Shown here one piece after another: positions 3 to 64,000 of a stretch of 64,000 nt of DNA. Within the stretch, counting starts at the first letter, position 1. Every line of letters starts with the position of its first letter. The notes beneath the pieces were generated by a model. It saw only the letters and a program-made list of their open reading frames with translations, had not been told where the DNA came from and ran no database searches. Origin of the DNA: Minisyncoccia bacterium (GTDB lineage Bacteria > Patescibacteriota > Minisyncoccia > SW-4-49-11); contig JBIIRM010000002.1 in assembly GCA_044341565.1 (NCBI GenBank), positions 65,812 through 129,811 on the forward strand, given 5' to 3'. The position numbers and the translations under genes were made by a program.

Positions 3-275
3 GTAGATTATAAAACAACTAATATTAAGAATGGGTTAACGGTAACTTCGACTTGTAATACAGGACTTAACAATTCTTGTTCTTTAGTACAGAATCCAGT
101 AGAAGGGTATATATTAGGTAATGGGAATCTACTATATCGTTATATTACGGTTCTTAATGCTACTGATAAAATTACCGTAACAAGTACCGTTATAGTGAAT
201 AATCCAAGACTCAATACAAAAATATATTCAGCAAATATAGAGATATTTAATACATTTTTGACTAGTACTCCTTAA
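3..275 (+). CDS. 3' end of an upstream gene running off the window edge; hypothetical, possibly part of the pilin operon
   Basis: Open frame from position 3 with no stop until TAA at about 273-275 (frame 3: VDYKTTNIKNGLTVTST...TSTP*). Thr/Asn/Val-rich like the neighbouring minor pilins. Confidence 0.3.
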   Translation, partial: VDYKTTNIKNGLTVTSTCNTGLNNSCSLVQNPVEGYILGNGNLLYRYITVLNATDKITVTSTVIVNNPRLNTKIYSANIEIFNTFLTSTP

Positions 276-449: not shown

Positions 450-917
450 ATGAAAAAAGGATTTACGATAGCAGAACTTGCGGTGGTAATAGGAATATTA
501 TCTATTATTATACTTGTAGTAGCACAGCCTATAACTAATATTATTAAATATCAAATAGATTCTCAGCAAAGTGATAATGTAAGAGATAATTTGCAATTTA
601 TTTTGAATGTGATGGATAAAGAGTTGAGAACTTCATCTGATATCTCTAGTCTTACCCCAAGTGAGTTAACATTTAAAGATCAGGATGGGGTAAATATAAG
701 CTATAAGAAAGATGGAAATATTATCAAGAAGTTAGATAAGCCCTATACTGACTCCAGTGTATTTACCGTTGAGGACCTTAGTTTTTTTATTAAGGCTGGG
801 GATGGTGGTTTAGTAAATAGCCCGGGAACTATAGTGACTGTAGTGATTACCGCTAAATCTGTAGATGGTAAAGATACCGTCACTATGCAATCAACCACAA
901 TGCCACGAAATAATTAA
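450..917 (+). CDS. type IV pilin-like / pseudopilin with prepilin N-terminal cleavage-methylation motif
   Basis: N-terminus MKKGFTIAELAVVIGILSIIILVV matches the G|FTxxE prepilin peptidase site followed by a hydrophobic helix. 155 aa. Confidence 0.7.
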   Translation: MKKGFTIAELAVVIGILSIIILVVAQPITNIIKYQIDSQQSDNVRDNLQFILNVMDKELRTSSDISSLTPSELTFKDQDGVNISYKKDGNIIKKLDKPYTDSSVFTVEDLSFFIKAGDGGLVNSPGTIVTVVITAKSVDGKDTVTMQSTTMPRNN

Positions 918-923
918 TATACT

Positions 924-1796
924 ATGAAATTTATACTACAACAATATAAAGGAGATATTACCCTATTTGTAACTATTATTGTATCAGCAGTTATGTTGAT
1001 ATTATTACTTGCCTTATCACAAAAAATCACAGTTGAATCTCGCATCTCTCGAGAAAATCTGTATTCACAACAGGCAATACAGGCAGCTAATACTGGTATT
1101 GATGCGTGGGAATATCGACTGGCACAAACAGGGGATGTTACTCTTACTACATCCCCTACTGGAAGTATAATTAATGGACCTTTGCAAAATTGGCCTAATA
1201 GTAATATTACTGGGAAAACAATAACAGATAGTTCCGGAAAGGAATGGATTGAATTATCTAGTGTAGGTGGCTCATCTATTCAATATAGAGTAGAATTCCA
1301 AGTAGGTAATCCTGCAGCAATTCCTCCAACAAAACCTCTTATTATTTCTAAAGGAAGAGTAGTTAGGGATAATACTATTATAGAAAGGACATTAGAGCAA
1401 GATTTTCAGACTATAGCAACACCAACTCCTCCTCTATATGTGGGGCCTCCTGTACCTATTGGTGTAACCACTCATAGTTTTAATAATACTACGGATCAAG
1501 ATATTTCTCTCACCTGGACTTCGGGAATAATAAATGTTATTTCAGAAAGTAAGACAGCTCCTGATGGTATAGACTCCACAGGAAATGAAGCTAAGCATTA
1601 TACAATTACCTTACCTCCTACTAACAATTATAATAATTTAGTGGTTACCGCTCAATCTACTGCTGCTGGGGATTTTGATCCAAATATAACTATTGCTAGA
1701 CTAGAAAAATTTTCTCCTACTGTATGGAAAGTGTGGTTTAAACGGAGTTCTGGAGTGAATACATATGTTGGGAGGTTTACAATTACCGGAGAATAA
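924..1796 (+). CDS. PilX-like minor pilin / pilus assembly protein (hydrophobic N-terminus)
   Basis: N-terminal hydrophobic segment LFVTIIVSAVMLILLLALS followed by AIQAANTGIDAW (PilX_N-like). Secreted Thr/Pro-rich remainder. Adjacent to the pilin-like gene, 7-nt gap. Confidence 0.45.
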   Translation: MKFILQQYKGDITLFVTIIVSAVMLILLLALSQKITVESRISRENLYSQQAIQAANTGIDAWEYRLAQTGDVTLTTSPTGSIINGPLQNWPNSNITGKTITDSSGKEWIELSSVGGSSIQYRVEFQVGNPAAIPPTKPLIISKGRVVRDNTIIERTLEQDFQTIATPTPPLYVGPPVPIGVTTHSFNNTTDQDISLTWTSGIINVISESKTAPDGIDSTGNEAKHYTITLPPTNNYNNLVVTAQSTAAGDFDPNITIARLEKFSPTVWKVWFKRSSGVNTYVGRFTITGE

Positions 1797-31533: not shown

Positions 31534-31536
31534 ATA

Positions 31537-47431: not shown

Positions 47432-47489
47432 TGTTAGTTGACAAAAAACTATAGACTGTGTATAGTGAGCTTGTTCCTCGCAAACTTTT

Positions 47490-47768: not shown

Positions 47769-47773
47769 TACCA

Positions 47774-47809
47774 ACAGGGGATGTCGTATTGGCATCCCTG
47801 TTTTATTTT
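47774..47809 (+). terminator. rho-independent terminator
   Basis: Stem caggggatg/catccctg with a 9-nt loop, followed by TTTTATTTT. Confidence 0.5.
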
Positions 47810-47832
47810 GTCTATTGTGGATAAGTTTTTAT

Positions 47833-47860
47833 TGACGGGGGGAGAAAATACCTATATAAT
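47833..47860 (+). promoter_or_regulatory. sigma70-like promoter for the mraZ (dcw) operon (TTGACG-16-TATAAT)
   Basis: TTGACG 47833-47838 and TATAAT 47855-47860. GGTGA Shine-Dalgarno-like element 5 nt before the mraZ ATG. Confidence 0.5.
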
Positions 47861-47899
47861 GGTAGAAAGTGGTAAAAAGTGGAAATAAATGGTGAATAT

Positions 47900-48331: not shown

Positions 48332-48333
48332 AT

Positions 48334-49227: not shown

Positions 49228-49235
49228 TTACCAAT

Positions 49236-49511
49236 ATGAAACAAATGAAATCCATCACCTATCTTCTAGTTATCACCATACTTCTAGCTGTAGTATATAT
49301 TGCTGAGAGTAATTCTTTATCAGTGCAAGGATATATTATTGCAGAAAATGAAAAAGATTTGGATACAGTTCAACAATCTTATACTGATCTTAATACACAA
49401 GTTGCTCAATATAATAGTATTGGAAATGTAAGTGTAAACCCAGCTGTTTCTGATATGGAAGCTAGTCAATTTGTATATATTTCTCAAGATGGTGCCCTGG
49501 TAAAAAAATAA
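49236..49511 (+). CDS. FtsL-like small bitopic division protein
   Basis: 91 aa with a single TM (ITYLLVITILLAVVYIA). Position between rsmH and ftsI. Confidence 0.5.
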   Translation: MKQMKSITYLLVITILLAVVYIAESNSLSVQGYIIAENEKDLDTVQQSYTDLNTQVAQYNSIGNVSVNPAVSDMEASQFVYISQDGALVKK

Positions 49512-49514
49512 TAT

Positions 49515-51296
49515 ATGCCAAAAAAATCTCCCGCCAAGTCATCTACTCAATCTAGAATACAGTATAATAAGGTGAGGCTGGGAGTATTTATTGTTTTTGT
49601 GTTTTTTCTTCTTGGAGGTGTTGTTGTAAGAGCGGCACAATTACAAATTTTTAAATATGCAGATTATAAAACAAAGGCAGAAGATCAGCATATTCGAGAA
49701 TCTAAATTAATAGGAAAAAGGGGAAATATTTATTTTCAAGATCTGAAATTAGGTCAGAATTTCCCTGTTGCTATTAATCGTAAAATGTATGATATAGCAA
49801 TAGATGCTAAACAAATTGAAGGTAGTAGTGAGGAGAATAAAACAAGAGTAAGAGATTTTATTAATCAAAATTTCCCCGATACAGATAAAAATAAATTAGA
49901 AGAAGAATTAAAGAAGCCTAATAAACAATGGTATTTAATAGCTAAGGATATCCCAGAAAACATTATAAAGCCAATACAAGATAATAATATAAAAGGATTT
50001 GTATTAGATGAGAAATTAGCTCGATTTTATCCAGAAAAAACTCTTGGGGCTCAAATTTTGGGATTTGTTTCTAGAGATACATTAAAAGGACAATATGGAG
50101 TGGAGCAATATTATAATGATGAATTAACAGGAGAAAATGGATTTGAAAAAGGAGAGCGAGATGGTCGAGGTACTTGGCTTGCTAATACTGAGAGAGAAAA
50201 AAGAGATGCAGTAGATGGTTCTCATATTGTGCTTACCATTGATCATACTCTGCAATATAAATTAGAAGAAGTTTTGGGAGAGCTAGCTACAGAATATAAG
50301 ACCAAGGTAGCACTTGGAGTTATTATGAATCCTAAAACTGGAGATATATATGCGATGTCATCCAATCCCACTTTTGATAATAATGAATATGGGAAAGTTG
50401 AAGATATTAAGGTATTTCAGAATCCTCTCATATCAAGTCTTTATGAGCAAGGATCTATCTTTAAGCCAATTACGGTTGGAATAGGGCTTGAAACAGGGGT
50501 AATTACTCCCAATACAACTTATGAAGATAAGGGGAAAGAAGAGATTAATAATTTCCCTATATATAATTGGTCAAAAAAAACATATGGAACGCAAACGATG
50601 AGCTATGCCTTAGAAAACTCTCTCAACCTTGGTATGATATTCATTCAAAGAAAACTAGGAAAAGAGCTTTTTGTTGCAGGTATTAGGGATAAATTTCAAA
50701 TAGGAGACAAGACAGAAATTGATCTTCCTGGAGAGGTAAATAATAATATTAAGAATATCACAAAATCAGAAAGAGATTCAAGAGAGGTTAATTATGCTAA
50801 TGCATCCTTTGGGCAGGGTATTTCTATGACGCCAATACGATTATTAAGTTCTTTTAATAGTATTATTAATGAAGGTAATATTGTAAAACCCCGTCTTGTG
50901 AAGTCAATACAAAAGCAAAATGGAGATATTCAAACTTTTGAGCCAGAAATACAGGGGCAGTCAATGTCAAAAGAAAAAGCACAAGAATTATCTCGTATGC
51001 TCGTGGATGTGGTAGAAAAGGGTTCTGGTAAAAAAGCAGCAGTTCCTGGATATAGTATTGGAGGTAAGACAGGAACAGGACAAATAGCCGCTACTGAAGG
51101 TGGAGGATATGGTGGAGATACTTATCAATCATTCATAGAATTTGCTACTTTGGATAATCCAAAGTATACTTTACTTATATCATTAGATAGTCCTCAAGGC
51201 TCAAAATTCTCTGATGTATCTGTAGTTCCAAAAATGAAAGAGCTGAATGAATTCTTATTGAATTATTTTGAAATTAAGCCAGATAAACCGATTTAA
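49515..51296 (+). CDS. ftsI: peptidoglycan D,D-transpeptidase (class B PBP, FtsI-like)
   Basis: N-terminal TM. SxxK (GSIFKP), SxN (SLN) and KTG (GKTGTG) motifs. Confidence 0.85.
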   Translation: MPKKSPAKSSTQSRIQYNKVRLGVFIVFVFFLLGGVVVRAAQLQIFKYADYKTKAEDQHIRESKLIGKRGNIYFQDLKLGQNFPVAINRKMYDIAIDAKQIEGSSEENKTRVRDFINQNFPDTDKNKLEEELKKPNKQWYLIAKDIPENIIKPIQDNNIKGFVLDEKLARFYPEKTLGAQILGFVSRDTLKGQYGVEQYYNDELTGENGFEKGERDGRGTWLANTEREKRDAVDGSHIVLTIDHTLQYKLEEVLGELATEYKTKVALGVIMNPKTGDIYAMSSNPTFDNNEYGKVEDIKVFQNPLISSLYEQGSIFKPITVGIGLETGVITPNTTYEDKGKEEINNFPIYNWSKKTYGTQTMSYALENSLNLGMIFIQRKLGKELFVAGIRDKFQIGDKTEIDLPGEVNNNIKNITKSERDSREVNYANASFGQGISMTPIRLLSSFNSIINEGNIVKPRLVKSIQKQNGDIQTFEPEIQGQSMSKEKAQELSRMLVDVVEKGSGKKAAVPGYSIGGKTGTGQIAATEGGGYGGDTYQSFIEFATLDNPKYTLLISLDSPQGSKFSDVSVVPKMKELNEFLLNYFEIKPDKPI

Positions 51297-52617
51297 CAAA
51301 TACTCTGATATGAAAAACCTGATATACCAAATGCTCAAATATGCAAGCAAGCAATTATTAAAACGGTATAAACCAACTCTAATAGGAGTTATTGGAAATG
51401 TTGGAAAAACAAGTATGAGAACTAATATGGTATCATTTTTGAGTCAATTTAGTCCCGTCGGTACCAATATAGATAATTATAATACTCCAATAGGGATAAC
51501 ATTATCATTTTTGGATGAAGTGTCTCCTGGGAAGAATATATTTGGTTGGATACCTATTATTATGAAAGCTATATCAAGGGCTTGGTTTGGATATGCTCAA
51601 TTTGCACCTATTTGGGTATTAGAAATTGGTATTGATGCTCCTGGAGATATGGATGAATTTGTAGAGAATTTCTTAGAATTTGATGTAGTAGTATTTGGAT
51701 TTATTGGAGAAAATCCTGTACATTTAGCTCAATTTCAAGATAGAAAAGAATTGATTCACGAAGATGCAAAAATATTAAGGGGATTAAAAAAAGATGGAGT
51801 TCTTATTATAGATGGTGATGATACGGTTCTCAAGTCTATTTGGCGTAAAAGAGAAAATGTCATTACTTTTGGTTTTGGGGATGTAGATATTAAAGCTTCA
51901 GATTTCAAAGTTACCATAGATGTAGTCAATACAAAAGAACAATGGGCAAATTATTATAGTAGCCTAGTACCAAAGGCAAGTTTTAAAGTTGAATATAGGG
52001 GAAGTAGTATTCCATTTCAGGTTGATTATGTATTAGGAAAACATCAGGTAAATGCGGTACTCCCATCAATTGCACTTGGAATTGTAGATGGTATGAATTT
52101 GATTGATATTTCACAACAAATAAAACAGGTGAGCCCAGTAAAAGGAAGACTTCGATGTCTGGAGGGGGTAAAAGACACCCTACTTATTGATGACACTTAT
52201 AATGCAGCTCCTTCTGCGGTGGCTATGGCATTAGATTCTCTGGATAGATTAAAAGTTCCAGGAGCTCGTAAAGTTGCAATTCTTGGAGTTATGAGAGAAT
52301 TAGGACCAGATTCACAGCAAATACATCAAGATATAGGTCAGGTAACCGCCAAAGTAGCTGATATATGTATTGGAGTAGGTGAGGATACAAAGGATATTTT
52401 ATTAGCTTTTCATAAGCATAATCCAAAAGGACTATATCATTGGTTTGCAGATTCTGAGGAGGCAGCACTTCATATAGTTGACTTTATTACCTCAGATGAT
52501 ATTATTCTAGTAAAGGGGTCACAATTCTCTCGTATGGAAAGAGTATCTGCAGAATTACTTTCGAATAAGAGATATAGATCAGAATTATTAACCCGACAAT
52601 CAGCAGAATGGCTATAA
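51268..52617 (+). CDS. murF: UDP-MurNAc-tripeptide--D-Ala-D-Ala ligase, short form
   Basis: P-loop GVIGNVGKTS and IDDTYNAAPSAV (MurF DDSYNANP-like). 449 aa with reduced N-terminal domain. Alternative start ATG 51310. Confidence 0.7.
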   Translation: MKLSQINRFNKYSDMKNLIYQMLKYASKQLLKRYKPTLIGVIGNVGKTSMRTNMVSFLSQFSPVGTNIDNYNTPIGITLSFLDEVSPGKNIFGWIPIIMKAISRAWFGYAQFAPIWVLEIGIDAPGDMDEFVENFLEFDVVVFGFIGENPVHLAQFQDRKELIHEDAKILRGLKKDGVLIIDGDDTVLKSIWRKRENVITFGFGDVDIKASDFKVTIDVVNTKEQWANYYSSLVPKASFKVEYRGSSIPFQVDYVLGKHQVNAVLPSIALGIVDGMNLIDISQQIKQVSPVKGRLRCLEGVKDTLLIDDTYNAAPSAVAMALDSLDRLKVPGARKVAILGVMRELGPDSQQIHQDIGQVTAKVADICIGVGEDTKDILLAFHKHNPKGLYHWFADSEEAALHIVDFITSDDIILVKGSQFSRMERVSAELLSNKRYRSELLTRQSAEWL

Positions 52618-52847
52618 AAATTATGAAGAAATCAAATAAATTATTTAAACAAGCATTTGCTGAATTAGAGAAGTTAACTCAAGATTTAGAACAAAATGAT
52701 GCCCTAGATTTAGAGAAAGGAGTTGTTTTATTCGAACAAGGTATGGAATTAGCTCAAATCTGTAAAACTCATCTCTCAGAAATCGAAAATACTATTATTA
52801 CTATTCAAAACAAATATTCAAAAAATAATGAAAAATCTCAAAGTTAA
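52608..52847 (+). CDS. xseB: exodeoxyribonuclease VII small subunit
   Basis: 79 aa. FEQGMELAQICKTHLSEIENTI matches the XseB helical hairpin consensus. Confidence 0.65.
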   Translation: MAIKIMKKSNKLFKQAFAELEKLTQDLEQNDALDLEKGVVLFEQGMELAQICKTHLSEIENTIITIQNKYSKNNEKSQS

Positions 52848-54639
52848 TATATCAATTCTTGCTCTAGTATTTTTAATCCCGAGTATTTCTTTTGCTGAAA
52901 CTGGGGATCGCATTGTCTATACACAATGTGAATTATCTCAATATGAAGAGCAATTAGCACCAGATTGGTATTTGGTAGAACAAGGCCAAGTCAAAAAAGA
53001 ATGTATTATTAAAGATATTCCAGAACAAAAAATTTATTTAGCAAGTAATGATATTCAATATGCTAATCAGTGGGCACTCAAAAATACAGGACAAACTATT
53101 TTAGGGCAAGTGGGAATAGCAGGTAAGGATATTGGATTTGAAGCAGGATATCCTAATATTGCAAATGCACCCAAAGGAAATACCAAAATTGGACTTATTG
53201 ATACAGGAGTTACTTCAATTCCTGATACAGCTGCTCAAATAGGAGCAGGATTTAATGTTATCGCTAATAATAGTAATGCAACAGATGATAATGGACATGG
53301 AACATTCATCTCTACTATTATTGCCTCACAAGTAAATAATGCTCAGGGAATAGCAGGAATTAATGATAGGGCCACTATTATCCCTATTAAAGTATTAGGA
53401 GCTGATGGTAGTGGGTATTTATCTGACTTAATAGAGGGAATACAATATGCTATTGACCAAAATGTGGCAATTATTAATTTAAGTCTTGCAACAAGTTCAT
53501 ATACTTCCGCCTTGAATCCCATTATAGAAAAAGCATATCAAAGAGGAATTATTATTGTGGCAGCAGCAGGGAATGGGGGAGTCAATATTACATCTCCTAC
53601 TATATCCCCACTCAATAATGATGGGAATAAAAATTGGATTATTGGTGTTGGTACGGTTGATAATCGTGGGGTAAAACCAGGATATGCTAATGATGGTCTT
53701 GGGGTAGATGTATTGGCGCCGGGGGATGATTTGCTTGGATATAATGCGAGCAATATACTTCAATATCGTTCTGGGACATCTATATCAACAGCAGTTGTTA
53801 CAGGAATTATTTCTGCTTGGCGGGATTATTATGGAACTCTTACCCCGGAAGATGCTATGAATTTGATTAATAGCTCTAGCCAAAATAGAGTTATATCTAT
53901 GAGTGTCGCCATGATAAAGCGTATATATCCCAATGGAGCTTTGATTCGAACAGCTAATTCAGGTGTTTTTATTGTAAAACAGGGGATAAAAAGACCTATT
54001 ATTGATCCTATTGTATTCTTATCCTATTATTATCGTTGGGAAGATATAAGTATCATTAGTCAATCAGTATTTGATGCTATTCCAATCGGGGATGCCTTGT
54101 CTCTAAGAGAAGGACTATTAATTGCAGATAAAGATAAAGTATATGTAATAGAGCAGGGATTAAAGCGTCCAATTGCTTCTCCTGAAGTTTTCCTAGGACT
54201 CGGGTATCAATGGAGTAATATTCAATTCCCATCTCAAGCGGTTCTTAATAATCATCCAACAGGATCCTTGGTGGGGGATATGAATACTCCTCCCAATGGT
54301 AGTGTGATTTATGCCGAAGGAACAGGGGCTTATTTAGTTGAAAATGGGAAGAAAAAACCCTTTAATAGCCCTTATACTTTCTTGAGTAGATATAGATGGA
54401 GTGATTTGATGTTAACTCAACGTAATATTGTGGATAATCTACCTACAGGTCTAGATGTATTCCCTCAAGAAGGTTCTATTATTCGAGATGATGGGGCCGT
54501 ATATTGGATTGAGAATAATACCAAGCGTCCATTTGCTTCACCTGAGGCTTTTTTGGGGCTTGGTTTATCCTGGGGAAGAGTGGTATATCCACCTGATGTT
54601 GTCTTGAATACTCTCAAACAAGGTGCTATAATACAATAA
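52828..54639 (+). CDS. secreted subtilisin-like serine peptidase (S8) with four C-terminal ~60-aa repeats
   Basis: Signal peptide. Catalytic triad contexts DTGV (Asp), HGTFIS (His) and SGTSISTAV (Ser). C-terminal repeats of the same family as 17932-21482. Confidence 0.8.
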   Translation: MKNLKVNISILALVFLIPSISFAETGDRIVYTQCELSQYEEQLAPDWYLVEQGQVKKECIIKDIPEQKIYLASNDIQYANQWALKNTGQTILGQVGIAGKDIGFEAGYPNIANAPKGNTKIGLIDTGVTSIPDTAAQIGAGFNVIANNSNATDDNGHGTFISTIIASQVNNAQGIAGINDRATIIPIKVLGADGSGYLSDLIEGIQYAIDQNVAIINLSLATSSYTSALNPIIEKAYQRGIIIVAAAGNGGVNITSPTISPLNNDGNKNWIIGVGTVDNRGVKPGYANDGLGVDVLAPGDDLLGYNASNILQYRSGTSISTAVVTGIISAWRDYYGTLTPEDAMNLINSSSQNRVISMSVAMIKRIYPNGALIRTANSGVFIVKQGIKRPIIDPIVFLSYYYRWEDISIISQSVFDAIPIGDALSLREGLLIADKDKVYVIEQGLKRPIASPEVFLGLGYQWSNIQFPSQAVLNNHPTGSLVGDMNTPPNGSVIYAEGTGAYLVENGKKKPFNSPYTFLSRYRWSDLMLTQRNIVDNLPTGLDVFPQEGSIIRDDGAVYWIENNTKRPFASPEAFLGLGLSWGRVVYPPDVVLNTLKQGAIIQ

Positions 54640-54661
54640 GAATTATTTATACAAATACAAT

Positions 54662-55696
54662 ATGAAAAAACGAATTGCAATCAATGGATTTGGGAGAATT
54701 GGAAGAACGGTATTAAAAATTTCATTATTACCACCTTATAATGAAATGTTAGAAGTAGTAGCAGTTAATGATTTGGGGGATGTGCACAATCTTGCTTATT
54801 TAGTCAAATATGACTCAGTATATGGGACAATACCACAAGAAGTCTCAGTAATGGAGCGAGAAGGAAAACCCTATATTAAAGTTGCTGATCAAGAAATTGT
54901 TGTATGTTCTGAAAAAGATCCCAATAATTTACCATGGGCGAGCCTAGCAATTGATGTAGTGATTGAATCCACAGGATTTTTTACTAGTACTGAGAAATCA
55001 CAAGCCCATATTAATGCTGGGGCAAAAAGAGTTGTAATCTCAGCACCAACTAAGGATGACACCTTAATGGTAACTCCAGCTCTTAATGAGAATGCTCTCA
55101 AAGATGTTTTAATTAGCTCTAATGCATCTTGTACTACCAATGCTACCAATCCAGTAGCTGCTATTATTCATGAAGCACTTGGTATTGAGAAAGCAATGTT
55201 ATCAACAGTTCATGCTTATACCTCAACACAATCTCTCGTAGATGGTATGGCTGACCCTAGTGATATGAGAAGAGGGAGAGCAGGAGCACAGAATATAGTT
55301 CCCTCAACCACAGGAGCTGCAAAGGCAGTAAGTAAGGTAATACCTGATCTTGCAGGGAAATTTGATGGTGTTGCAATTCGTGTGCCTGTTATTGCAGGAT
55401 CATTAATTGATTTGACCATGTTAGTGTCCCGAGATACAACAGTTGAAGAAATAAATCAAATTCTTATTAATGCCTCTAATAGTGATAAGTGGAAAAATAT
55501 ACTCGGAGTAACAACCGATCAATTAGTATCTACTGATATACTGAAATCATCTTATGGGAGTTTGGTTTCTCTTGATTTAACCCAGGTGGTAGATGGGGAC
55601 CTCATTAAGGTTATGGCCTGGTATGATAATGAATGGAGTTATACTTCTATGCTAATGCGTCATGTGCAAACAGTACTGAATGTATTGGAAAGTTAA
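54662..55696 (+). CDS. gap: glyceraldehyde-3-phosphate dehydrogenase
   Basis: INGFGRIGR NAD-binding motif and the SNASCTTN active-site cysteine motif. Confidence 0.9.
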   Translation: MKKRIAINGFGRIGRTVLKISLLPPYNEMLEVVAVNDLGDVHNLAYLVKYDSVYGTIPQEVSVMEREGKPYIKVADQEIVVCSEKDPNNLPWASLAIDVVIESTGFFTSTEKSQAHINAGAKRVVISAPTKDDTLMVTPALNENALKDVLISSNASCTTNATNPVAAIIHEALGIEKAMLSTVHAYTSTQSLVDGMADPSDMRRGRAGAQNIVPSTTGAAKAVSKVIPDLAGKFDGVAIRVPVIAGSLIDLTMLVSRDTTVEEINQILINASNSDKWKNILGVTTDQLVSTDILKSSYGSLVSLDLTQVVDGDLIKVMAWYDNEWSYTSMLMRHVQTVLNVLES

Positions 55697-55704
55697 CACA
55701 TATT

Positions 55705-57489
55705 ATGAAAAACAAAAAATATACAAATAAAAAGGGATTTACTCTATTAGAAATATTATTAGTAATAACGCTTATCGGTATATTAGCTTCCATTGTTCTG
55801 ATTGCAATTAACCCAAATAGACAATTAGCTGAGGCTCGTAATCTAAAGAGATTTGATGATATTACTAAAATCAATCAAGCTTTAGAAGATTATTTTGTTG
55901 TAAATAAAGCCTATCCTACAGGCGTAACGCAATCATATCAAGATATTTGTCCCCCAAGTGGAGGAAGTAATTGTGTGGATTTAAGTGCATTAGTACCTGA
56001 TTATCTTCCTAGTATTCCTATAGCTCCTAATGCAGCTGCAGGAACAACTGGATATACGGTTGCTATAAACACTAAAAATAAACAATTGTCTCTAGAAGCA
56101 AAAACCCCTGAATTAGGAAGTACTATTGTTATTAATCCTATAACCCCTACTAATATTCTATTTGCAAATCAATATAATTTAACTGGGGGAGAGGTGAGTG
56201 AGGGAGTTAATTTTTATGATATTAAAAGTTTTGCTGATGGGAGTAGTATAGCAGCAGGATATATTAGAGGGACTGTAACCTTAGGATTGGATACTTTTAC
56301 ATCATCAGGAGGGCCTGTGAAGATTATTGTGAAATATGATTCGAATGGTGATATTGTATGGGTAAGACAACCTGGTGGCTATGATTATGATAATACAGAA
56401 ATAAGTATATTATCAGATGGAAGCAGTATTGTAACAGGTAGTTTTGATGGTACAGTAACATTTGGAACACAGCCCGCTTTAGTAGGAACGGGTTTTGATA
56501 AATTTATTGTAAAATATGATATAAATGGGACCGTGGTATGGGCAAAAAAGGTATCTAATGGGGGTAATTATAAAACAATACAAGGTTTGAGTGGATTTGC
56601 TGATGGGAGTAGTGTAGTGACAGGATATTTTTCAGGGACATTAGATTTTCAAGGTCAACCACCTCTTATAAATAATAATAGTTTTTCGTGGTATACAGAT
56701 ATGTTTATCGTAAAATATGATACAAACGGAAATGTATTATGGGCGAGATCAGCTGGAGGGTATGATTCTTCTGATTACGGACAAAAAGCTACTACATTAA
56801 CAGACGGAAGTAGTATTGTAACAGGTAGTTTTGGTACTACAATAACATTTGGAGACCAACCACCTTTGGTGACTGTTGGAGGATCTGATATGTATCTTAC
56901 AAAATATGATACGAGTGGAAATGCAGTATGGTCAAAACAAATTGTATCAAATTATTATGCTGGTATTAATGGAATAAAAAGTTTAACAGGTGGGGGTAGT
57001 ATTATAACAGGTAATTTTAATGGTACGATAACATTTGGAGATCAACCACCTTTGGAGAGTATTGGAGAAACTGATATATTTATTGTAAAGTATGATACTA
57101 ATGGTAATGTTGTATGGGCAAAGCAAGTAGGGGCAACCAATTATAATTCGAGTTTGGACATAAGTGTATTAACAGATGGAAGTAGTATTATAACAGGTAG
57201 TTTTGGTGGCACGGTAGCATTTGGAAACCAGCCTGCTTTAGTAAGTTCTGGAGAAAATGATATATTTATTGCAAAATATGATACCAATGGTAATGTTATA
57301 TGGGTCAAATCAGCTGGTGCAGCTACAGAACCAGTGGATACAGATATTGGTTTAGGTATAACGGTTTTAAGTAATGGAGACTTTATACTTATTGGATCAG
57401 TAAATCCTTTTGCATCTTTTGACAATGGATTATATGACCTTAATAATAGTAGCTATGTTACATTTATGATGAAATATAAAGGAACTTAG
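55705..57489 (+). CDS. type IV pilin-like protein with large C-terminal beta-propeller (SBBP-like) repeat domain
   Basis: KKGFTLLEILLVITLIGILASIVLIAI prepilin motif. At least eight repeats of pattern DGSSIVTGSF.GT.TFG.QP.L......D.FIVKYDTNGNVVWAK. Confidence 0.7.
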   Translation: MKNKKYTNKKGFTLLEILLVITLIGILASIVLIAINPNRQLAEARNLKRFDDITKINQALEDYFVVNKAYPTGVTQSYQDICPPSGGSNCVDLSALVPDYLPSIPIAPNAAAGTTGYTVAINTKNKQLSLEAKTPELGSTIVINPITPTNILFANQYNLTGGEVSEGVNFYDIKSFADGSSIAAGYIRGTVTLGLDTFTSSGGPVKIIVKYDSNGDIVWVRQPGGYDYDNTEISILSDGSSIVTGSFDGTVTFGTQPALVGTGFDKFIVKYDINGTVVWAKKVSNGGNYKTIQGLSGFADGSSVVTGYFSGTLDFQGQPPLINNNSFSWYTDMFIVKYDTNGNVLWARSAGGYDSSDYGQKATTLTDGSSIVTGSFGTTITFGDQPPLVTVGGSDMYLTKYDTSGNAVWSKQIVSNYYAGINGIKSLTGGGSIITGNFNGTITFGDQPPLESIGETDIFIVKYDTNGNVVWAKQVGATNYNSSLDISVLTDGSSIITGSFGGTVAFGNQPALVSSGENDIFIAKYDTNGNVIWVKSAGAATEPVDTDIGLGITVLSNGDFILIGSVNPFASFDNGLYDLNNSSYVTFMMKYKGT

Positions 57490-57573
57490 TATTCCTATTG
57501 GTCAAAGAATATTAATCTTATTGACGAATAGATCGAATAACCGTATACTTGAGACTACGTATAAGGGTATAGT

Positions 57574-58650
57574 ATGAGTAAAACAGTATTCCTTGGTATG
57601 TCAGGAGGGGTAGATTCTTCGGTATCTGCTTATCTTTTGCAACAACAAGGATATAATGTTGTGGGTGTATTTATGAAGAATTGGTCGGGTAAACTTGAAA
57701 CCAGCCGAGGGATTTTTGATTTTCCTTGTTCATCTCAAGCTGATTATGAAGATGCCCGGCAAGTAGCTGGGCATCTTGGAATACCAATATATACTTTTGA
57801 TTTTGAAGCGGAATATCGCAATCGAGTGATAGAATATTTTATTGCTGAGATTAAGCGAGGTCGTACTCCTAATCCTGATATTATGTGTAATAAAGAAATT
57901 AAATTCAAGGTTTTCCTCGATAAATGCCTTTCTCTGGGAGCTGATTATATTGCAACTGGACATTATGCACGAGTCAATAAGACAGAAGATGGGATATATC
58001 ATCTTTTAAAGGGAATAGATACTACCAAGGATCAGTCTTATTTCCTCTCTACTCTAGGGCAATATGAATTATCTCATACCTTATTCCCTGTAGGGGATAT
58101 ACCAAAATCTGAGGTTAGAAGAATAGCTCTTGAGATTAAATTGCCTAATGCAAAAAAGCCAGATAGTCAAGGAATTTGTTTTGTAGGAGAAATTGATGTC
58201 AATGCTTTTATCGAATCTTTTGTAGGAGAAAATCCTGGAGATATTGTGAATACAGAGGGTAATATATTAGGACAACATAGAGGTTTATACTTCTATACCA
58301 TTGGGCAGAGAAAGGGACTTGGAATTGGTGGGGGAATACCCTATTTTGTGAAATCAAAGAATCTAGAGACCAATCAACTGATTGTATCTAAGGGGGTAGA
58401 CCCATTGGATTTATATCAATCTGAAGTTATTATTAAAGAATTATCCTGGACTCATACAATACCAGAATTACCACAACAATTACAGGCTAAAATTCGTTAT
58501 AGATCTCAGGATGTATCTTGTCGCGTAGAAATGATTGATGAGTCATCTCTTAAAGTACTATCTGATGAGCCTCAGAGGGCCATAACACAGGGGCAATTCC
58601 TTGCTTTATATAAAGATGATGAATTAATTGGAAGTGGAATAATGGACTAG
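57574..58650 (+). CDS. mnmA: tRNA-specific 2-thiouridylase
   Basis: PP-loop VFLGMSGGVDSSVSA and catalytic Cys contexts. Confidence 0.9.
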   Translation: MSKTVFLGMSGGVDSSVSAYLLQQQGYNVVGVFMKNWSGKLETSRGIFDFPCSSQADYEDARQVAGHLGIPIYTFDFEAEYRNRVIEYFIAEIKRGRTPNPDIMCNKEIKFKVFLDKCLSLGADYIATGHYARVNKTEDGIYHLLKGIDTTKDQSYFLSTLGQYELSHTLFPVGDIPKSEVRRIALEIKLPNAKKPDSQGICFVGEIDVNAFIESFVGENPGDIVNTEGNILGQHRGLYFYTIGQRKGLGIGGGIPYFVKSKNLETNQLIVSKGVDPLDLYQSEVIIKELSWTHTIPELPQQLQAKIRYRSQDVSCRVEMIDESSLKVLSDEPQRAITQGQFLALYKDDELIGSGIMD

Positions 58651-58706
58651 GGTATTGAAAAATATTGATATTTATGCTATAATAACTGATAATCTTATAT
58701 CAAATT

Positions 58707-59282
58707 ATGCATTCTCCATTTGTGATTATATCTTCTCCCTCAGGTGGAGGAAAATCGACAATAGCAAAAAAAATCCTTCAATCATCGCGTCGTTTTGCTA
58801 AAGCAATTTCCGCCACTACTCGAGCTCCAAGAATAGGGGAAAAAAATGGAAAAGATTATTATTTCCTTTCTGTAGAAGAGTTTCGAGATAAAATTGCTCA
58901 AAAACAATTTTTAGAATGGGAAGAAGTATATACAGACAAATTCTATGGGACATTAAAATCTGAAATAGAAAAATTATCTGAGCAAAATAAAATTGTAATT
59001 ATGATACTCGATATTCATGGAGCATTAAAGCTGAAAAAAGAATTTCAGGATAGAGTATTAACCATATTCCTCGATATCCCAAGCCTTGAGATACTAAAGG
59101 AACGCCTACAATATCGGGCTACAGAAAGCTCAGCATCTCTAGAGGATAGATTACATCGAGCTAAATATGAATTATCATATAAGAATCAATTTGATATTGT
59201 AATTGAGAATACTAATCTTACTAAGACAGTAAAACAATCTATTGAAGCCATTGATACATTTTTGCATAAATGTGAATTGTAG
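58707..59282 (+). CDS. gmk: guanylate kinase
   Basis: P-loop SPSGGGKST and TTRAPRIGEKNGKDYYFLS. Confidence 0.85.
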   Translation: MHSPFVIISSPSGGGKSTIAKKILQSSRRFAKAISATTRAPRIGEKNGKDYYFLSVEEFRDKIAQKQFLEWEEVYTDKFYGTLKSEIEKLSEQNKIVIMILDIHGALKLKKEFQDRVLTIFLDIPSLEILKERLQYRATESSASLEDRLHRAKYELSYKNQFDIVIENTNLTKTVKQSIEAIDTFLHKCEL

Positions 59283-59355
59283 GCTATACTCAAATATAGA
59301 GTAGAGTATATTATTGGTTATTTGATATATTTTTATTATATACTTACTCAAAATT

Positions 59356-59386
59356 GTTATTATTTTATTATTTTATTATTTTATTA
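59356..59386. repeat. short tandem repeat (attatttt x ~3.5) in the 5' region of the NYN gene
   Basis: tattattttattattttattattttattatg is directly visible. Copy number could vary by slippage. Confidence 0.3.
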
Positions 59387-60108
59387 TGACAAAAAAATAT
59401 AAGCCACCCTTCAAACATAAAAGAGGGTTCTTTAGTAGTGCTGATGAATTAGTGGATGATATCCCTGATTTAAAACCTGCTATATCAACACAAGAGCAAA
59501 CAGTATCAGCCCCTCCTAAGGTAGACACAAAGCCGACACATTATAATAATGCTCCGAGGCCTAAAACTGAACAGCCTAAGGGGTTAAAGACACAAAAGCC
59601 TTCAACTCAACCTAGGGCTTTTCAAAAAAGACCAAATTTTGCTTTTATTGATGGTCAGAATTTGAATAAATCAATTCAAAATCAAGGTTGGAGTCTTGAT
59701 TATAAAGAATTCCGTAATTATCTTGATAAAGAATTTGGGGTAAAAAAAGCCTATATGTTTATTGGTATGGTGAATACCAATCAGCAATTATACTCAGCCT
59801 TGCAGGACTTCGGATATCATTTGGTATTCAAACCAACTATTGCCAATAAACAAGGTGAGATAAAAGGAAATGTAGATGCCGAAATGGTATTATATGCTCT
59901 TACTCAAATTAATCAATATGATCAAGCGGTTATTGTGAGTGGAGATGGAGATTTTTATACTCTAGTTCAGTATTTACAAAGTCAGCGTAAATTAAAAAAA
60001 TTATTAGTACCCAATGAAAAAGCCTATTCAACTTTATATGATAGCCTAGATATCAGCACTACTTTTGTTGATGATTTACGTAAAACCCTAGAGTATAAAA
60101 AGAAATAA
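59386..60108 (+). CDS. NYN-domain (LabA-like PIN) nuclease with Pro/Lys/Thr-rich N-terminal extension
   Basis: FAFIDGQNL...DAEMVLYAL...VIVSGDGDFYTLVQYLQ match the NYN acidic-residue pattern. N-terminal ~85 aa low complexity. Confidence 0.7.
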   Translation: MTKKYKPPFKHKRGFFSSADELVDDIPDLKPAISTQEQTVSAPPKVDTKPTHYNNAPRPKTEQPKGLKTQKPSTQPRAFQKRPNFAFIDGQNLNKSIQNQGWSLDYKEFRNYLDKEFGVKKAYMFIGMVNTNQQLYSALQDFGYHLVFKPTIANKQGEIKGNVDAEMVLYALTQINQYDQAVIVSGDGDFYTLVQYLQSQRKLKKLLVPNEKAYSTLYDSLDISTTFVDDLRKTLEYKKK

Positions 60109-60114
60109 TTTTTT

Positions 60115-61011
60115 ATGCCCGAGCTTCCCGAAGTAGAAAGTTTAAGAGTGAGCTTGAAGCCATATATAATAGGGCAAACTATTGAGTCAGTGACCGTACA
60201 TAAGCCGAAATTGGTAAGTAGTTCAGGTACAGTCAGGCAGCCACTTCCTCACAAAAAAGAAGAATTTGAAAAAGAATTAAAGGGAACGACAATTATAAAT
60301 ATTACTCGTATCGCCAAGAATTTGCTGATACATTTGGATAGTGGGCAAGTGTTATTAGTACATCTTAAGATGACAGGTCAATTAGTATATCAAGAAAAAG
60401 GGGAGAATAAAGCTCTAGGGGGTCACCCCATTGAACTCTCAGAGACAAAACTTCCCAATCAACATAGTCATATTATATTCGAGTTAAATAAGGGGATTTT
60501 ATACTATAATGATATTAGAATGTTTGGGTATATATTATTATATCCAGATGAGCAGAGTATACATAAATCAGGGCATTTTGATGAGATAGGAATAGATCCA
60601 TTAGATGAGGCATTTACCTTTGAATATTTGTATCAGCATATTCATACTCGTAAATCTAAGCTTAAATCAATATTACTGGGGCAATCTATTGTGACCGGAC
60701 TTGGGAATATATATGCTGATGAGGTATGTTTTCGAGCTGGTATATTACCAAGTCGCCTTGCTTCAAATTTAATCAAAAAAGAAGTAAAAAAACTGCATGA
60801 TGCTATACAAGATGTTATCCCAGTTGCGGTCTCAATGGGAGGTTCTTCGGTAGCTAATTATATTATGGCAGATGGTTCTCGTGGTACATATGCACGAGAG
60901 CATAAAGTATATGGTAAATCTGGTAAGCCCTGTCAAATATGTGGCAATATATTACAAAAGACTATTATTAATACTCGAACAACGGTATTCTGTCAATTTT
61001 GCCAAAAATAA
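60115..61011 (+). CDS. mutM: formamidopyrimidine-DNA glycosylase
   Basis: MPELPEVE N-terminus (catalytic Pro2/Glu3), H2TH region, C-terminal zinc finger CQICGNILQ...CQFCQ. Confidence 0.9.
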   Translation: MPELPEVESLRVSLKPYIIGQTIESVTVHKPKLVSSSGTVRQPLPHKKEEFEKELKGTTIINITRIAKNLLIHLDSGQVLLVHLKMTGQLVYQEKGENKALGGHPIELSETKLPNQHSHIIFELNKGILYYNDIRMFGYILLYPDEQSIHKSGHFDEIGIDPLDEAFTFEYLYQHIHTRKSKLKSILLGQSIVTGLGNIYADEVCFRAGILPSRLASNLIKKEVKKLHDAIQDVIPVAVSMGGSSVANYIMADGSRGTYAREHKVYGKSGKPCQICGNILQKTIINTRTTVFCQFCQK

Positions 61012-61026
61012 GGTATACTAGAATAT

Positions 61027-62049
61027 ATGAAATCAAATAATAATTATAGTGTAAATATTAATCTGTATTCTCTTTTCCAAGTCCTATTAGTTCTTGGCGG
61101 ATTATGGCTGGCATTTATACTGAGGAATGTTATTGTACTTACTGTTTTAGCTTTTATTATCTCATCAGGTATTATATTAGGGGCAAAAAAATTGAATAAA
61201 GTATTACGTATTCCTTATACGTTGGGTGTGATTTTTGTGATATCAGTATTAGCAGCTATTGTAGCACTGTTAATAGAGCTTATTATCCCAACTATTAGTA
61301 GTGAATTAAGAGGTCTTGTTGATAAATCTCCTGAATTATTTGATCAATTAAATACGACTATTGGGAGTGTTTTGAATATTAGTGATTTTAATATTACTCA
61401 ATTTTTCAATACGGGGGGTACTGCCAATATAGGAGAAATTACTTGGAATATTGTGACTGGAGTATTCTTTACTACCAAGAATATTCTTAATACCTTTTTA
61501 TATATTGGATTTTTTGCTATTACAACTTTTTATATGGCAATTCGACCACAGAATTTGAATGAGCTCATACAATTTTTATTCCCCAAAAAACAACATAAAA
61601 CAGTTGTTACTAATATTGAATTAGCTCGTACAAAGGTTGGATCTTGGTTATTAGGACAATGTTTAATTTCTCTTATATTAGCCAGTGTAACCTATCCAGC
61701 CCTATTATTATTAGAAGTACCATTCCCATTATTATTAGCGGTAATTGCGGCAGTATTTAATCTTATTCCTATTATAGGTCCAATTTTATCATCAGTTCCT
61801 GCCATTATATTAGCTCTAGCTAATGGATTTCAATTTGCAGTTATTGTAGGATTATTTTATCTTGTAATTCAGCAAATAGATGGAAATTTTATGACACCAC
61901 TTATTATGAGAAAAGTGACAGGAATTCATCCTCTTATTGTGATGATTGTAATTTTACTTGGAACCTCTCTAGCAGGAGCTCTTGGGGCTCTTATTGCAGT
62001 GCCCGTAGTATCTGTCTTGTCAATTTTTATTAAAGAATTAGAAGACTAA
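61027..62049 (+). CDS. AI-2E family (UPF0118/PerM-like) transporter
   Basis: Eight TM helices, conserved NLIPIIGPILSSVPAIILAL region. Confidence 0.8.
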   Translation: MKSNNNYSVNINLYSLFQVLLVLGGLWLAFILRNVIVLTVLAFIISSGIILGAKKLNKVLRIPYTLGVIFVISVLAAIVALLIELIIPTISSELRGLVDKSPELFDQLNTTIGSVLNISDFNITQFFNTGGTANIGEITWNIVTGVFFTTKNILNTFLYIGFFAITTFYMAIRPQNLNELIQFLFPKKQHKTVVTNIELARTKVGSWLLGQCLISLILASVTYPALLLLEVPFPLLLAVIAAVFNLIPIIGPILSSVPAIILALANGFQFAVIVGLFYLVIQQIDGNFMTPLIMRKVTGIHPLIVMIVILLGTSLAGALGALIAVPVVSVLSIFIKELED

Positions 62050-62050
62050 T

Positions 62051-63349
62051 ATGGCATATATTGAAGCAGGTATTATTATTGTATTACAAATAGTGATTAT
62101 TGTAATATTATTGACTCGTAAAAGTAATGTAGGAGGAGATTTTGCTAATATTCTAGCTCGTACAGAAAAAATCCTCAAGGATGATATACAATTATCCCGT
62201 AAAGACTCTCGTGAATTAGCCCAAGAGGGGAGAATAGAGCTTGGGAATAATCTCAATACCTTTGGGAATTCTTTACTCAAAAGAATTCATGAGTCATCTA
62301 TTATGCAAAAAAGCCAATTAGAAATATTTTCTCAGCAATTGGTTTCTCTCACTAAACAAAATGAAACTAAATTAGATAGTATTAGAGAAACTGTTGAGAA
62401 GAGATTAACCGAATTACAAAAAGACAATAATCAAAAACTTGAGAAAATGCGAGAGACAGTAGATGAAAAATTACAATCTACTCTCGAGAAGCGATTAGCT
62501 CAATCATTCCAATCAGTAAGTGAGCGATTAGAGCAAGTACATAAGGGGCTTGGGGAAATGCAAAATTTAGCTGTGGGAGTTGGGGATCTCAAAAAAGTAT
62601 TATCTAATGTTAAAACTCGTGGAACTTGGGGAGAAGTTCAACTCGGTAATCTCTTAGAGCAAATTCTTACCAAAGAGCAATATCAGGCTAATGTCGCCAC
62701 CAAAAAAGACTCAAAAGATGTGGTAGAATATGCTATCAAATTACCTGGTAAAGATAAGAATCTTAATCATATTTGGCTACCAATTGATGCCAAATTCCCT
62801 ATAGAGGATTATCAGAGATTAATTGAAGCCGAAGATGCCAATGATAGACCAGCTATTGATGCTGCCAATAAAGCTATTGAGAAGAGACTCAAAGATGAAG
62901 GAAAGAAAATACAAACCAAATATATTGACCCTCCTCATACCACAGATTTTGCTATTCTGTTTATTCCTATTGAAGGATTATATGCCCAATTACTCAAAAT
63001 TCCAGGATTAGTAGAGTCAATACAGCGAGAATATCGAGTTATGATTACAGGACCTACTACAATTACCGCAATACTTAATAGTCTTCAAATGGGATTCAGA
63101 ACCCTTGCTATAGAACAGCAATCGAGTGAAATATGGCAAACTTTATCTGAGGTAAAAACTGAATTTGGACGATTTGGAGAAATATTAGAGAGAACACAGA
63201 AAAAATTACAAGAAGCATCTAATCAAATTGATGCAGGAGCAACCCGAGCTCGGGCAATTGAGCGTAAACTCAAAAATGTGGATACCTATGAAATTGGAAA
63301 GGCAGAAGTTGATTTGATAGAAACTGCCGAAACAGAATTAGAGGCTTAA
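62051..63349 (+). CDS. rmuC: DNA recombination protein RmuC
   Basis: N-terminal TM, long coiled coil, then TRGTWGEVQLGNLLEQILT RmuC signature. Confidence 0.85.
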   Translation: MAYIEAGIIIVLQIVIIVILLTRKSNVGGDFANILARTEKILKDDIQLSRKDSRELAQEGRIELGNNLNTFGNSLLKRIHESSIMQKSQLEIFSQQLVSLTKQNETKLDSIRETVEKRLTELQKDNNQKLEKMRETVDEKLQSTLEKRLAQSFQSVSERLEQVHKGLGEMQNLAVGVGDLKKVLSNVKTRGTWGEVQLGNLLEQILTKEQYQANVATKKDSKDVVEYAIKLPGKDKNLNHIWLPIDAKFPIEDYQRLIEAEDANDRPAIDAANKAIEKRLKDEGKKIQTKYIDPPHTTDFAILFIPIEGLYAQLLKIPGLVESIQREYRVMITGPTTITAILNSLQMGFRTLAIEQQSSEIWQTLSEVKTEFGRFGEILERTQKKLQEASNQIDAGATRARAIERKLKNVDTYEIGKAEVDLIETAETELEA

Positions 63350-64000
63350 ACTTTTGAGTATACCAGCCCCTACAATAGCAGCTGTCTCAGCTCGCAATAT
63401 ATTGGGGTTGAATGATACTGCCATATAAGAATATTGAGATACTAATTCAGCATATTCTTTTTGAGAAAATCCACCCTCAGGACCTATTAGTAAATTGATA
63501 TCAGAATGATTTTCAATATCAATACTATGAATAGGTATAGGTTTATTATATTGAGTATCCCCAATGAGATTGAGACTATTTGGTGTATACGTAATTTGGT
63601 TTAATTCCTGTATAGTAAGAGTAGGGAAATATACTTGTTCAGATTGTTTGCAGGCAGTACTTATAATAGTATTCCAACGATTTTGTTTAGATAGAATATC
63701 CTTTAGGTTAATTTGGGCATAATCAGTTTTGGTAATAATAATTTCATCAACTCCCATCTCAGTTAATTTTTGTATAATTAATTCTAATAAGGGGATTTTG
63801 ATAATACTTACAATTACCCGAATAGAGAGCTTTGTCTTCTTAGTTGAGAAGGATTCAATAATTTCTGTTTGAAATGGCTTTAGAGAGCTTATTTTGAGAT
63901 TATAAAGAGTACCTTTACCATCAGTTGCCTGTACAATTTCATTCGGCTTGAGGCGTAATACATTGGTTATATGATGAATTTCATCTTGTATAAGACTTTG
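63338..64000 (-). CDS. rsmE: 16S rRNA (uracil1498-N3)-methyltransferase RsmE, N-terminus runs off the window
   Basis: C-terminal LLIGPEGGFSQKEYAEL...ILRAETAAIVGAGIL. The open frame continues without a stop to position 64000 (N-terminal HHITNVLRLKPNEIV PUA-like region). Confidence 0.8.
   Translation of the reverse strand, partial: QSLIQDEIHHITNVLRLKPNEIVQATDGKGTLYNLKISSLKPFQTEIIESFSTKKTKLSIRVIVSIIKIPLLELIIQKLTEMGVDEIIITKTDYAQINLKDILSKQNRWNTIISTACKQSEQVYFPTLTIQELNQITYTPNSLNLIGDTQYNKPIPIHSIDIENHSDINLLIGPEGGFSQKEYAELVSQYSYMAVSFNPNILRAETAAIVGAGILKSLSL

Follow-up and report, generated by a model that had tools for sequence, protein, structure and literature searches.

Of the organelles with which the ultrasmall bacteria of the candidate phyla radiation (CPR, or Patescibacteria) may hold on to their host cells, type IV pili have the best support. 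A gene of a Minisyncoccia bacterium (assembly GCA_044341565.1, contig JBIIRM010000002.1) raises the question of whether such pili could carry a binding module of their own. The window, that is, the whole stretch of DNA that was analysed, is 64,000 nucleotides long, and the gene lies on its + strand at 55705..57489. Its open reading frame (ORF) runs from an ATG at 55705 to a stop codon at 57487-57489, and the product has 594 residues. The initial annotation of this gene had read the product as a type IV pilin fused to a multi-blade beta-propeller, and this reading is supported at the level of sequence, family and predicted structure. According to the ORF and its translation, the gene is complete, stop codon included, and consists of a pilin module, a linker and a predicted seven-bladed beta-propeller. 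An identical 594-residue protein is present in the public databases of NCBI and JGI, where its sole annotation is 'prepilin-type N-terminal cleavage/methylation domain-containing protein'. We consider it probable that the protein is a modular type IV pilin whose propeller serves as a pilus-borne binding module and helps attachment.

Pilin module, linker and propeller

The N-terminus reads MKNKKYTNKKG|FTLLEILLVITLIGILASIVLIAI, where the bar marks the predicted prepilin-peptidase cut after Gly11. The leader (55705..55737, +) is short and positively charged as expected of a class III signal peptide, with Gly at position -1, Phe at +1 and Glu at +5. It is matched by PF07963 (N_methyl; E 8.8e-7, 28.7 bits against a cut-off of 21.2) and by TIGR02532 (E 7.2e-7, 28.8 bits against a cut-off of 16.3), and Gly11, Phe12 and Glu16 do not vary among 20 family members. 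Matches to GspG/GspH/ComG-type and Geopilin sequences fall on the same N-terminus. AlphaFold2 models of the full-length protein and of the pilin module alone both contain helices at residues 14-34 and 37-67 followed by a beta-sheet. The module alone was predicted as a long kinked helix with a small sheet, with a predicted local distance difference test score (pLDDT) of 88.6. The canonical prepilin leader and N-terminal helix of the initial annotation were borne out by the two family models, both above cut-off, and by these helices.

The mature pilin module extends from residue 12 to about residue 146 (55738..56142, +) and comprises the two helices and a small beta-sheet head with the conserved Cys82 and Cys91. 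Residues 1-148 match stand-alone CPR pilins by the hundred; these have 141-160 aa, several are named PilA, and the identity is 40-55% over the whole length. The closest relative of the module is 78% identical, and the end-to-end alignments with stand-alone pilins span 40-77%. In the alignment the stand-alone pilins stop exactly where the linker of the 594-residue protein starts, and they have the invariant Cys82 plus a second Cys nine residues further. One of them (P0215, at L081 9992-10450) is encoded at the end of a pilB-pilC-minor-pilin operon in a Saccharibacteria metagenome-assembled genome (MAG). Because of the end-to-end alignment and the modelled helix and sheet, the N-terminal part reads as a whole PilA-like pilin, more than a signal peptide. 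It is followed by a Pro-rich linker of about residues 143-150 (INPITPTN; 56131..56154, +), at which the stand-alone pilins end and around which pLDDT dips to 60-68 (residues 141-170). With a pilin module (residues 1 to ~146), this linker and an extra domain (151-594), the protein has the composition that defines a modular type IV pilin. Nearest to the pilin module, at 75-78% identity, are P0124 (141 aa), which ends at the linker, and P0125 (213 aa), which has the module and one blade. Either could be a pilin in its own right, a fragment or a truncated variant.

The repeat motifs that had been quoted for the rest of the protein, DGSSI[VI]TGSF, GT.TFG.QP and [FL]IVKYDTNGNV[VI]WAK, were all found in its C-terminal two thirds. 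The repeats themselves stand, although their alignment gave seven units of 60-67 aa instead of the at least eight units of ~55 aa that had been counted. The repetition is also visible in the DNA and is far above chance there: Tandem Repeats Finder reported a period of 186 nt with 2.8 copies, 76% matches and a score of 562 across blades 4-6, and DNA motif families gave six copies at a spacing of 180-201 nt. The propeller had been left to structure prediction to confirm or refute. AlphaFold2 returned seven four-strand units in the full-length model (pLDDT 82.7; predicted template modelling score, pTM, 0.72). In a Foldseek search with this model, the propeller of CylK came first (E 1.6e-21), then generic propellers, with sialidases and PQQ-type propellers lower in the list. 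The best sequence match in the PDB was again CylK (E 6e-23), over about residues 256-640 of the CylK chain only, which are its propeller. The C-terminal part is predicted to be a closed seven-bladed beta-propeller of the SBBP/delta-60 kind.

The blades follow one another on the + strand as placed by the repeat alignment and the AlphaFold2 strand pattern: blade 1 at residues 170-229 (56212..56391), blade 2 at 230-291 (56392..56577) and blade 3, with a longer B-C loop, at 292-358 (56578..56778). Blade 4 at residues 359-420 (56779..56964), blade 5 at 421-482 (56965..57150) and blade 6 at 483-548 (57151..57348) also lie in the 186-nt DNA tandem array. Blade 7 at residues 549-594 (57349..57486) is placed by the repeat alignment; it is C-terminally short and its last strand is missing. 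A predicted strand before blade 1, at residues 151-158 (NILFANQY; 56155..56178, +), aligns in register with the V[VI]WAKQV of the repeats. In beta-propellers, a strand from the opposite end of the chain that completes the last blade is the usual closure of the ring. Judged from this register, strand 151-158 would close blade 7 as the outer 'velcro' strand.

The family assignment needs a distinction. The initial annotation had called the repeats SBBP-like, and Pfam PF06739 (SBBP) gave no match on the protein even at E<=1. NCBIfam NF047494 (SBBP LipL53, an equivalog model) matched four stretches with E 3.6e-30, its 105 bits falling short of the cut-off of 400. The score of PF17164 (delta-60/DUF5122; E 0.11, 13.2 bits) was likewise below the 27 bits required, and precomputed PF17164 matches exist in most other members of the pilin-propeller family. 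There are also weak NCBIfam matches to beta-propeller lectin families (E 1.2e-4 and 0.011). The homologues at E 1e-60 to 1e-127 are mostly SBBP proteins of Bacteroidota that are sorted by the type IX secretion system (T9SS) and have PF06739 and PF18962. Because homologues at E 1e-60 to 1e-100 have PF06739, the propeller appears to belong to the PF06739 superfamily and to lie outside that model. Thus, the SBBP-like label holds through the sub-threshold LipL53 match and these homologues, and fails for PF06739 itself. The repeat family is the same as in the secreted SBBP/delta-60 (DUF5122) propellers, such as the T9SS-sorted proteins of Bacteroidota and LipL53 of Leptospira. However, those are exported by Sec/T9SS or as lipoproteins, whereas the protein described here has a prepilin leader and no lipobox. 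In a profile search of 1.84 billion representatives, the propeller family comprised 35,396 representative clusters at E<=1e-30, often giant multi-propeller proteins, and a pilin module stood at the start of only 6 of the 150 best representative clusters.

As the closest solved propeller by both sequence and fold belongs to an enzyme, the propeller might itself be an enzyme on the pilus or cell surface: a CylK-like alkylating enzyme, or a glycan hydrolase or lyase acting on the host envelope. The sialidases and PQQ-type propellers lower in the Foldseek list would fit this, and modular pilins with peptidase modules have been catalogued by Raynaud et al. (PMC8179133). We nevertheless regard an enzyme as improbable. 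The match to CylK is limited to its propeller. The family-invariant residues are the Gly, Trp, Tyr and Asp-Gly-Ser of the repeat motif, without a unique catalytic constellation, and the 594-residue protein has no enzyme family match in Pfam or NCBIfam. The fast-evolving loops described below are more typical of recognition surfaces. CylK (PDB 7RON, 7FH6), a Friedel-Crafts alkylating enzyme, is only ~20% identical. It is a cytoplasmic biosynthetic enzyme with an extra N-terminal calcium-binding domain and without a pilin module, whereas a pilin module precedes the propeller here. The N-terminal domain of CylK reportedly contributes to its active site, and this domain has no counterpart in the 594-residue protein.

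Blades 4-6 (56796-57309, +) are 71-77% identical in nucleotides with the 186-nt period. Moreover, the protein and its 93%-identical orthologue are about four residues shorter in the blade B-C loops (FG.QP.L) than the rest of the family (FGQGEPNQT.L). The similarity of the blades and the shared shortening suggest concerted evolution or recent blade duplication.

Relatives and evolutionary rate

An orthologue of 599 aa, with 93% identity and 43 differences, was found in the 'Candidatus Saccharibacteria' MAG GCA_964585065.1, which is called the sister genome below. The gene order is the same in both, namely topA, mraZ ... S8 peptidase, gap, the pilin-propeller gene, mnmA and gmk. About 20 further full-length pilin-propeller proteins, at 36-46% identity, are divided into domains at the same points. 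Species-representative genomes allowed some of them to be placed, in every case in a MAG of Paceibacteria/Parcubacteria or Saccharibacteria. Together with the orthologue, they agree with the assignment of the gene to a CPR bacterium that had been made from the letters of the window. The sister genome also has a second pilin-propeller paralogue, P0030, and two proteins in which the same pilin module (45-48% identity) is joined to LamG_3 lectin domains, one of them with fn3 in addition.

Evolutionary rates were taken from a single pairwise comparison with the sister genome, covering 13 genes: the pilin-propeller gene and twelve neighbours. The ratio of nonsynonymous to synonymous substitution rates (dN/dS) of the pilin-propeller gene was 0.59, the highest of the 13; taken separately, the pilin module has 0.29 and the propeller 0.71. 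The twelve neighbouring genes gave 0.03-0.22. The excess is more than an effect of short divergence, because the genes with similarly low dS, those of the S8 peptidase (0.045) and AI-2E (0.06), have a dN/dS of just 0.16-0.22. Within the blades, the B-C and D-A loops make up 43% of the residues and hold 21 of the 31 changes (one-sided binomial p=0.005), and the strands are depleted of changes. From the usual arrangement of propeller strands, these two sets of loops would share one face of the propeller. The rate pattern fits an exposed recognition surface, as far as a single sequence pair can tell.

The same figures could be read as those of a decaying or dispensable gene, in which the raised dN/dS reflects relaxed constraint on a disused surface protein. 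The highest ratio of the 13 genes, the indels between the orthologues (594 against 599 aa) and the short relatives such as P0125, with its pilin module and one blade, would be expected in that case. However, the frame is intact in both genomes, and the seven blades and the leader are kept. The dN/dS is below 1, and in the pilin module it is no more than 0.29. The indels are found in loops and do not shift the frame, and distant CPR lineages still share the architecture at 36-46% identity. Decay is therefore a very improbable explanation, and a maintained binding module remains the reading that we prefer.

The dS values themselves form a mosaic. The pilin-propeller gene has a dS of 0.06 against ~0.4 in the flanking gap and mnmA genes, and this suggests recent recombination in patches that involved the pilin-propeller gene. 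Across 45705-64000 of the window, compared with L085, dS is 0.045-0.09 in the genes of the S8 peptidase, the pilin-propeller protein and AI-2E and in rmuC, and 0.36-0.42 in ftsI, murE/F, gap and mnmA.

The pilin module is not confined to propeller proteins. Dozens of long pilins with the same module occur across the CPR loci that were fetched. Ten of these long CPR pilins were scanned, and they carried PA14/GLEYA, an RCC1 propeller, 13 DUF5122 repeats, DUF285, Golvesin_C with an InlB B-repeat, LamG_3, an FGE-sulfatase-like domain or Gly_rich_2. The pilin-propeller gene is probably one cassette among many in CPR bacteria, which combine a common carrier module with differing binding domains.

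Several of these genes can be located. Two lie adjacent in tandem at L035 10001-12862 and 12957-15332, and encode the pilin module with 13 strong DUF5122 repeats (953 aa) and with DUF285 repeats (791 aa), respectively. The module is followed by an RCC1 propeller at L044 6532-8157 (541 aa), by PA14/GLEYA at L042 1329-3482 (717 aa) and by Golvesin_C with an InlB B-repeat at L059 9995-11611 (538 aa). Orphan pilins of the sister genome GCA_964585065.1 were found at L030 636-2711 (691 aa, LamG_3 and fn3) and at L037 10001-11128 (375 aa, LamG_3) and 1998-3194 (398 aa). All three lie among housekeeping genes. A Saccharibacteria pilus operon at L081 2734-10953 consists of pilB, pilC, a pilin gene, the gene of a 930-aa class III LVIVD-propeller protein, another pilin gene, a gene for 126 aa and two tandem pilin genes. 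The two tandem pilins (152 and 156 aa) are homologous to the pilin module of the 594-residue protein.

Pilus machinery, gene position and proposed function

A pilin needs a machine to assemble it, and Pfam scans of ~45 ORFs found no assembly genes within the window. The region upstream was read from a contig with proteins identical to those of the first genes of the window; its downstream genes match 1.9-11.9 kb of the window one for one. In the ~9 kb upstream of the window, this contig encodes PilM, three small proteins, PilB (MshEN+T2SSE), a response regulator, PilT, PilC (T2SSF), a 138-aa pilin, PilD (A24_N_bact+Peptidase_A24) and two small proteins of 161 and 169 aa. The domains detected were PilM_2, T2SSE twice, T2SSF, an N_methyl pilin and A24_N_bact with Peptidase_A24. 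The cognate pilus machinery on which the initial annotation had made its claim depend is thus present, with assembly genes and prepilin peptidase directly before the start of the window on its own contig. Judged from the gene content of the cluster on the matching contig, the type IV pilus system of the genome is complete, prepilin peptidase included. Scans of 87 loci for Walker-A and peptidase motifs found pilB in other CPR genomes only, and none in the four sister-genome stretches.

The cluster reaches into the window. The 3' end of the 169-aa gene, a probable minor pilin whose 5' end lies upstream, occupies 3..275 (+) according to the gene table of the contig and the translation. The second-last gene of the cluster, at 450..917 (+), encodes a minor pilin of 155 aa (MKKGFTIAELAVV...), assigned by its class III signal peptide and its position in the cluster, with weak matches to N_methyl (E 0.003) and ComGF (E 0.011). 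The last gene, at 924..1796 (+), encodes a 290-aa protein with an N-terminal hydrophobic (membrane) helix and without a family match. It is possibly a PilX-like accessory subunit, and is assigned to the pilus by its position only.

The pilin-propeller gene is an orphan between gap and mnmA, ~54 kb downstream of this cluster. The gap gene, which encodes glyceraldehyde-3-phosphate dehydrogenase, lies at 54662-55696 with its stop codon at 55694-55696, and a spacer of 8 nt separates it from the ATG at 55705. The initial annotation had correctly noted the start codon directly after the gap stop. Its description of gap as an operon partner does not hold, as the adjacency is not family-wide: other members of the pilin-propeller family adjoin dUTPase/photolyase, ZnuA/DUF218 or seryl-tRNA synthetase genes. 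Because the neighbourhoods differ across the family, the adjacency to gap reflects no more than the close packing of genes. As only the 93% sister genome shares it, the idea of a functional operon with gap was dropped. An alternative in-frame ATG at 55633 was also rejected, as it overlaps gap and its extra 24 residues are found in no homologue. A scan for promoters and terminators gave 32 promoter-like sites against 26.4 +/- 4.2 expected, and an Rfam scan gave four tRNAs and nothing else.

In the reading that we prefer, the hydrophobic helix would insert the precursor into the membrane, and PilD, whose gene lies ~56 kb upstream, would remove the leader by a cut behind Gly11. PilB, PilC and PilM of the upstream cluster could then build the pilin module into pili like any pilin. 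The 594-residue protein would be a subunit of low abundance, most likely at or near the pilus tip, because a propeller of ~47 kDa is too bulky for every subunit of a 3-6 nm filament. The loop-rich face of the propeller may bind a ligand, probably a cell-wall glycan or a surface protein of the host bacterium, and so help attachment.

The position of the gene among housekeeping genes, ~54 kb from the pilus cluster, could instead point to a surface-anchored binding protein that is not a pilus subunit. The class III signal and the helix would then serve export and anchoring, or a short pseudopilus or bindosome-like assembly. Archaeal sugar-binding proteins with class III signal peptides offer a model for this, with the propeller held at the cell surface. 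A bulky propeller is hard to fit in the body of a filament, and the many long 'pilins' per CPR genome go beyond the obvious needs of a tip complex. On the other hand, the whole pilin module is retained, including the globular head and the Cys pair, at 40-77% identity to short pilins, some of which are encoded in pilB-pilC operons. Purifying selection is stronger on the pilin module (dN/dS 0.29) than on the propeller, and the modular pilins PilB and PilC of S. sanguinis do enter pili (PMC8179133, PMC9934059). A surface anchor of this kind, including the form modelled on the archaeal proteins, is in our view unlikely.

Several points weigh against a pilus-borne binding module. That the 594-residue protein is cut and enters pili, where on the pilus it sits and what it binds are all points that we infer, and its gene is an orphan outside the pilus cluster. 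Support for the pilin head from Foldseek is statistically weak: the top PDB matches of the modelled pilin module, PulG, PilA1 of C. difficile and EpsG, have E values of 0.026-1 and are not significant. Blade 7 is modelled with low confidence, as the final 40 residues have a pLDDT of 45-76. The family-conserved residues of the propeller are those of the structural repeat motif, and a conserved binding pocket was not found among them. The assignment of the fast loops to one face follows canonical propeller topology instead of coordinates. Finally, the raised dN/dS comes from one pair at a dS of 0.06, and could reflect relaxed constraint instead of diversifying selection.

Both the design principle and a functional precedent for a propeller pilin have been published, and the 594-residue protein is an uncharacterised member of the modular pilins. 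This class was defined by Raynaud et al. in 2021 (PMC8179133), who catalogued >1,200 modular type IV pilins in 264 architectures, many of them from CPR bacteria. In Dataset S1 of the same paper, four proteins have the architecture IPR012902-IPR013431-IPR013431, and many architectures join a pilin to IPR013211. The prototypes from S. sanguinis are PilB, a pilin with a vWA module, and PilC, a pilin with a ConA-like lectin module (PMC8179133, PMC9934059). The extra module here is a seven-bladed propeller of the SBBP/delta-60 type, previously unstudied on a pilin. In S. sanguinis, pilB and pilC lie within the pil locus, whereas the gene described here is far from the pilus locus; its bearer is also a CPR bacterium, likely epibiotic. 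IPR013431 is the delta-60 repeat, in agreement with the PF17164 matches of the pilin-propeller family, and IPR013211 is the LVIVD repeat.

The functional precedent comes from Nanosynbacter lyticus TM7x (Saccharibacteria), whose minor pilin PilX2 ends in a seven-bladed RCC1 propeller of lectin-like fold (PMC11623550). Deletion of PilX2 lowered host binding from ~10.6% to 4.6%, and PilX2 was proposed as the adhesin of the thin T4P-2 pili (PMC11623550). We infer an adhesin role for the pilin-propeller protein, and PilX2 is a direct experimental precedent for such a role. Both are type IV pilin-like proteins of CPR bacteria with a seven-bladed beta-propeller. However, PilX2 is described as having RCC1 repeats, and the Pfam scan found no RCC1 match on the 594-residue protein. 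PilX2 also has no predicted PilD-type signal peptide and is encoded beside pilA2 in the pilus locus, in contrast to the class III leader, PilA-like module and orphan gene here. The PilY1/PilC tip adhesins of Pseudomonas and Neisseria likewise present a beta-propeller at the tip of type IV pili for adhesion, and a tip location is presumed for the protein described here. PilY1, by contrast, is not a pilin; it docks on the minor-pilin tip complex and has an IPR008707 propeller. No Pfam match to the PilY1/Neisseria_PilC family (PF05567, IPR008707) was obtained on the 594-residue protein at E<=1. The protein is neither PilY1 nor a LipL53 equivalog nor an enzyme of the CylK type.

The gene adds a well-defined candidate for host attachment, a canonical pilin joined to an SBBP-type propeller, with a conserved family, a paralogue and lectin-type siblings in the sister genome and signs of fast evolution in the propeller loops. 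Residues 151-594 are a defined domain for work on glycan or protein binding. Adhesin-bearing pilins can sit far from the pilus locus, and surveys based on that locus will thus miss them.

A broader proposal may be made tentatively, and we doubt it more than we believe it. CPR bacteria might keep scattered orphan 'cassette' pilins, with one PilA-like carrier and interchangeable binding heads (SBBP and RCC1 propellers, LamG lectin, PA14 and others), which a single machine loads to set or switch host and ligand specificity in the manner of phage receptor-binding proteins. The propeller gene would then be a host-range determinant under diversifying selection. It would have been exchanged recently between strains, because its dS of 0.06 lies between flanks of ~0.4.

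Other loci in the window

Three further loci in the window deserve mention. On the - strand at 26353-32271, a PrgI-family gene (26353-26796; PF12666, E 4e-11) is followed by same-strand ORFs of 291, 715, 567 and 244 aa without a Pfam match. This region probably corresponds to the conjugation-related, type IV secretion-like gene cluster of Patescibacteria reported in bioRxiv 10.1101/2025.01.22.634366. The S8 subtilisin-like peptidase at 52828-54639 (+) has 603 aa and a signal peptide, and is 98.5% identical in the sister genome with a dS of 0.045. Its C-terminal half contains about four internal repeats with the motif ...G.KRPI.SP.VFL..GY.W..I..., without a family assignment. A 648-aa ORF without a Pfam match (17932-19878, +) lies directly upstream of the gene of a 533-aa N-acetylmuramoyl-L-alanine amidase-domain protein (19881-21482, +), and the two may be a cell-wall-targeting pair.

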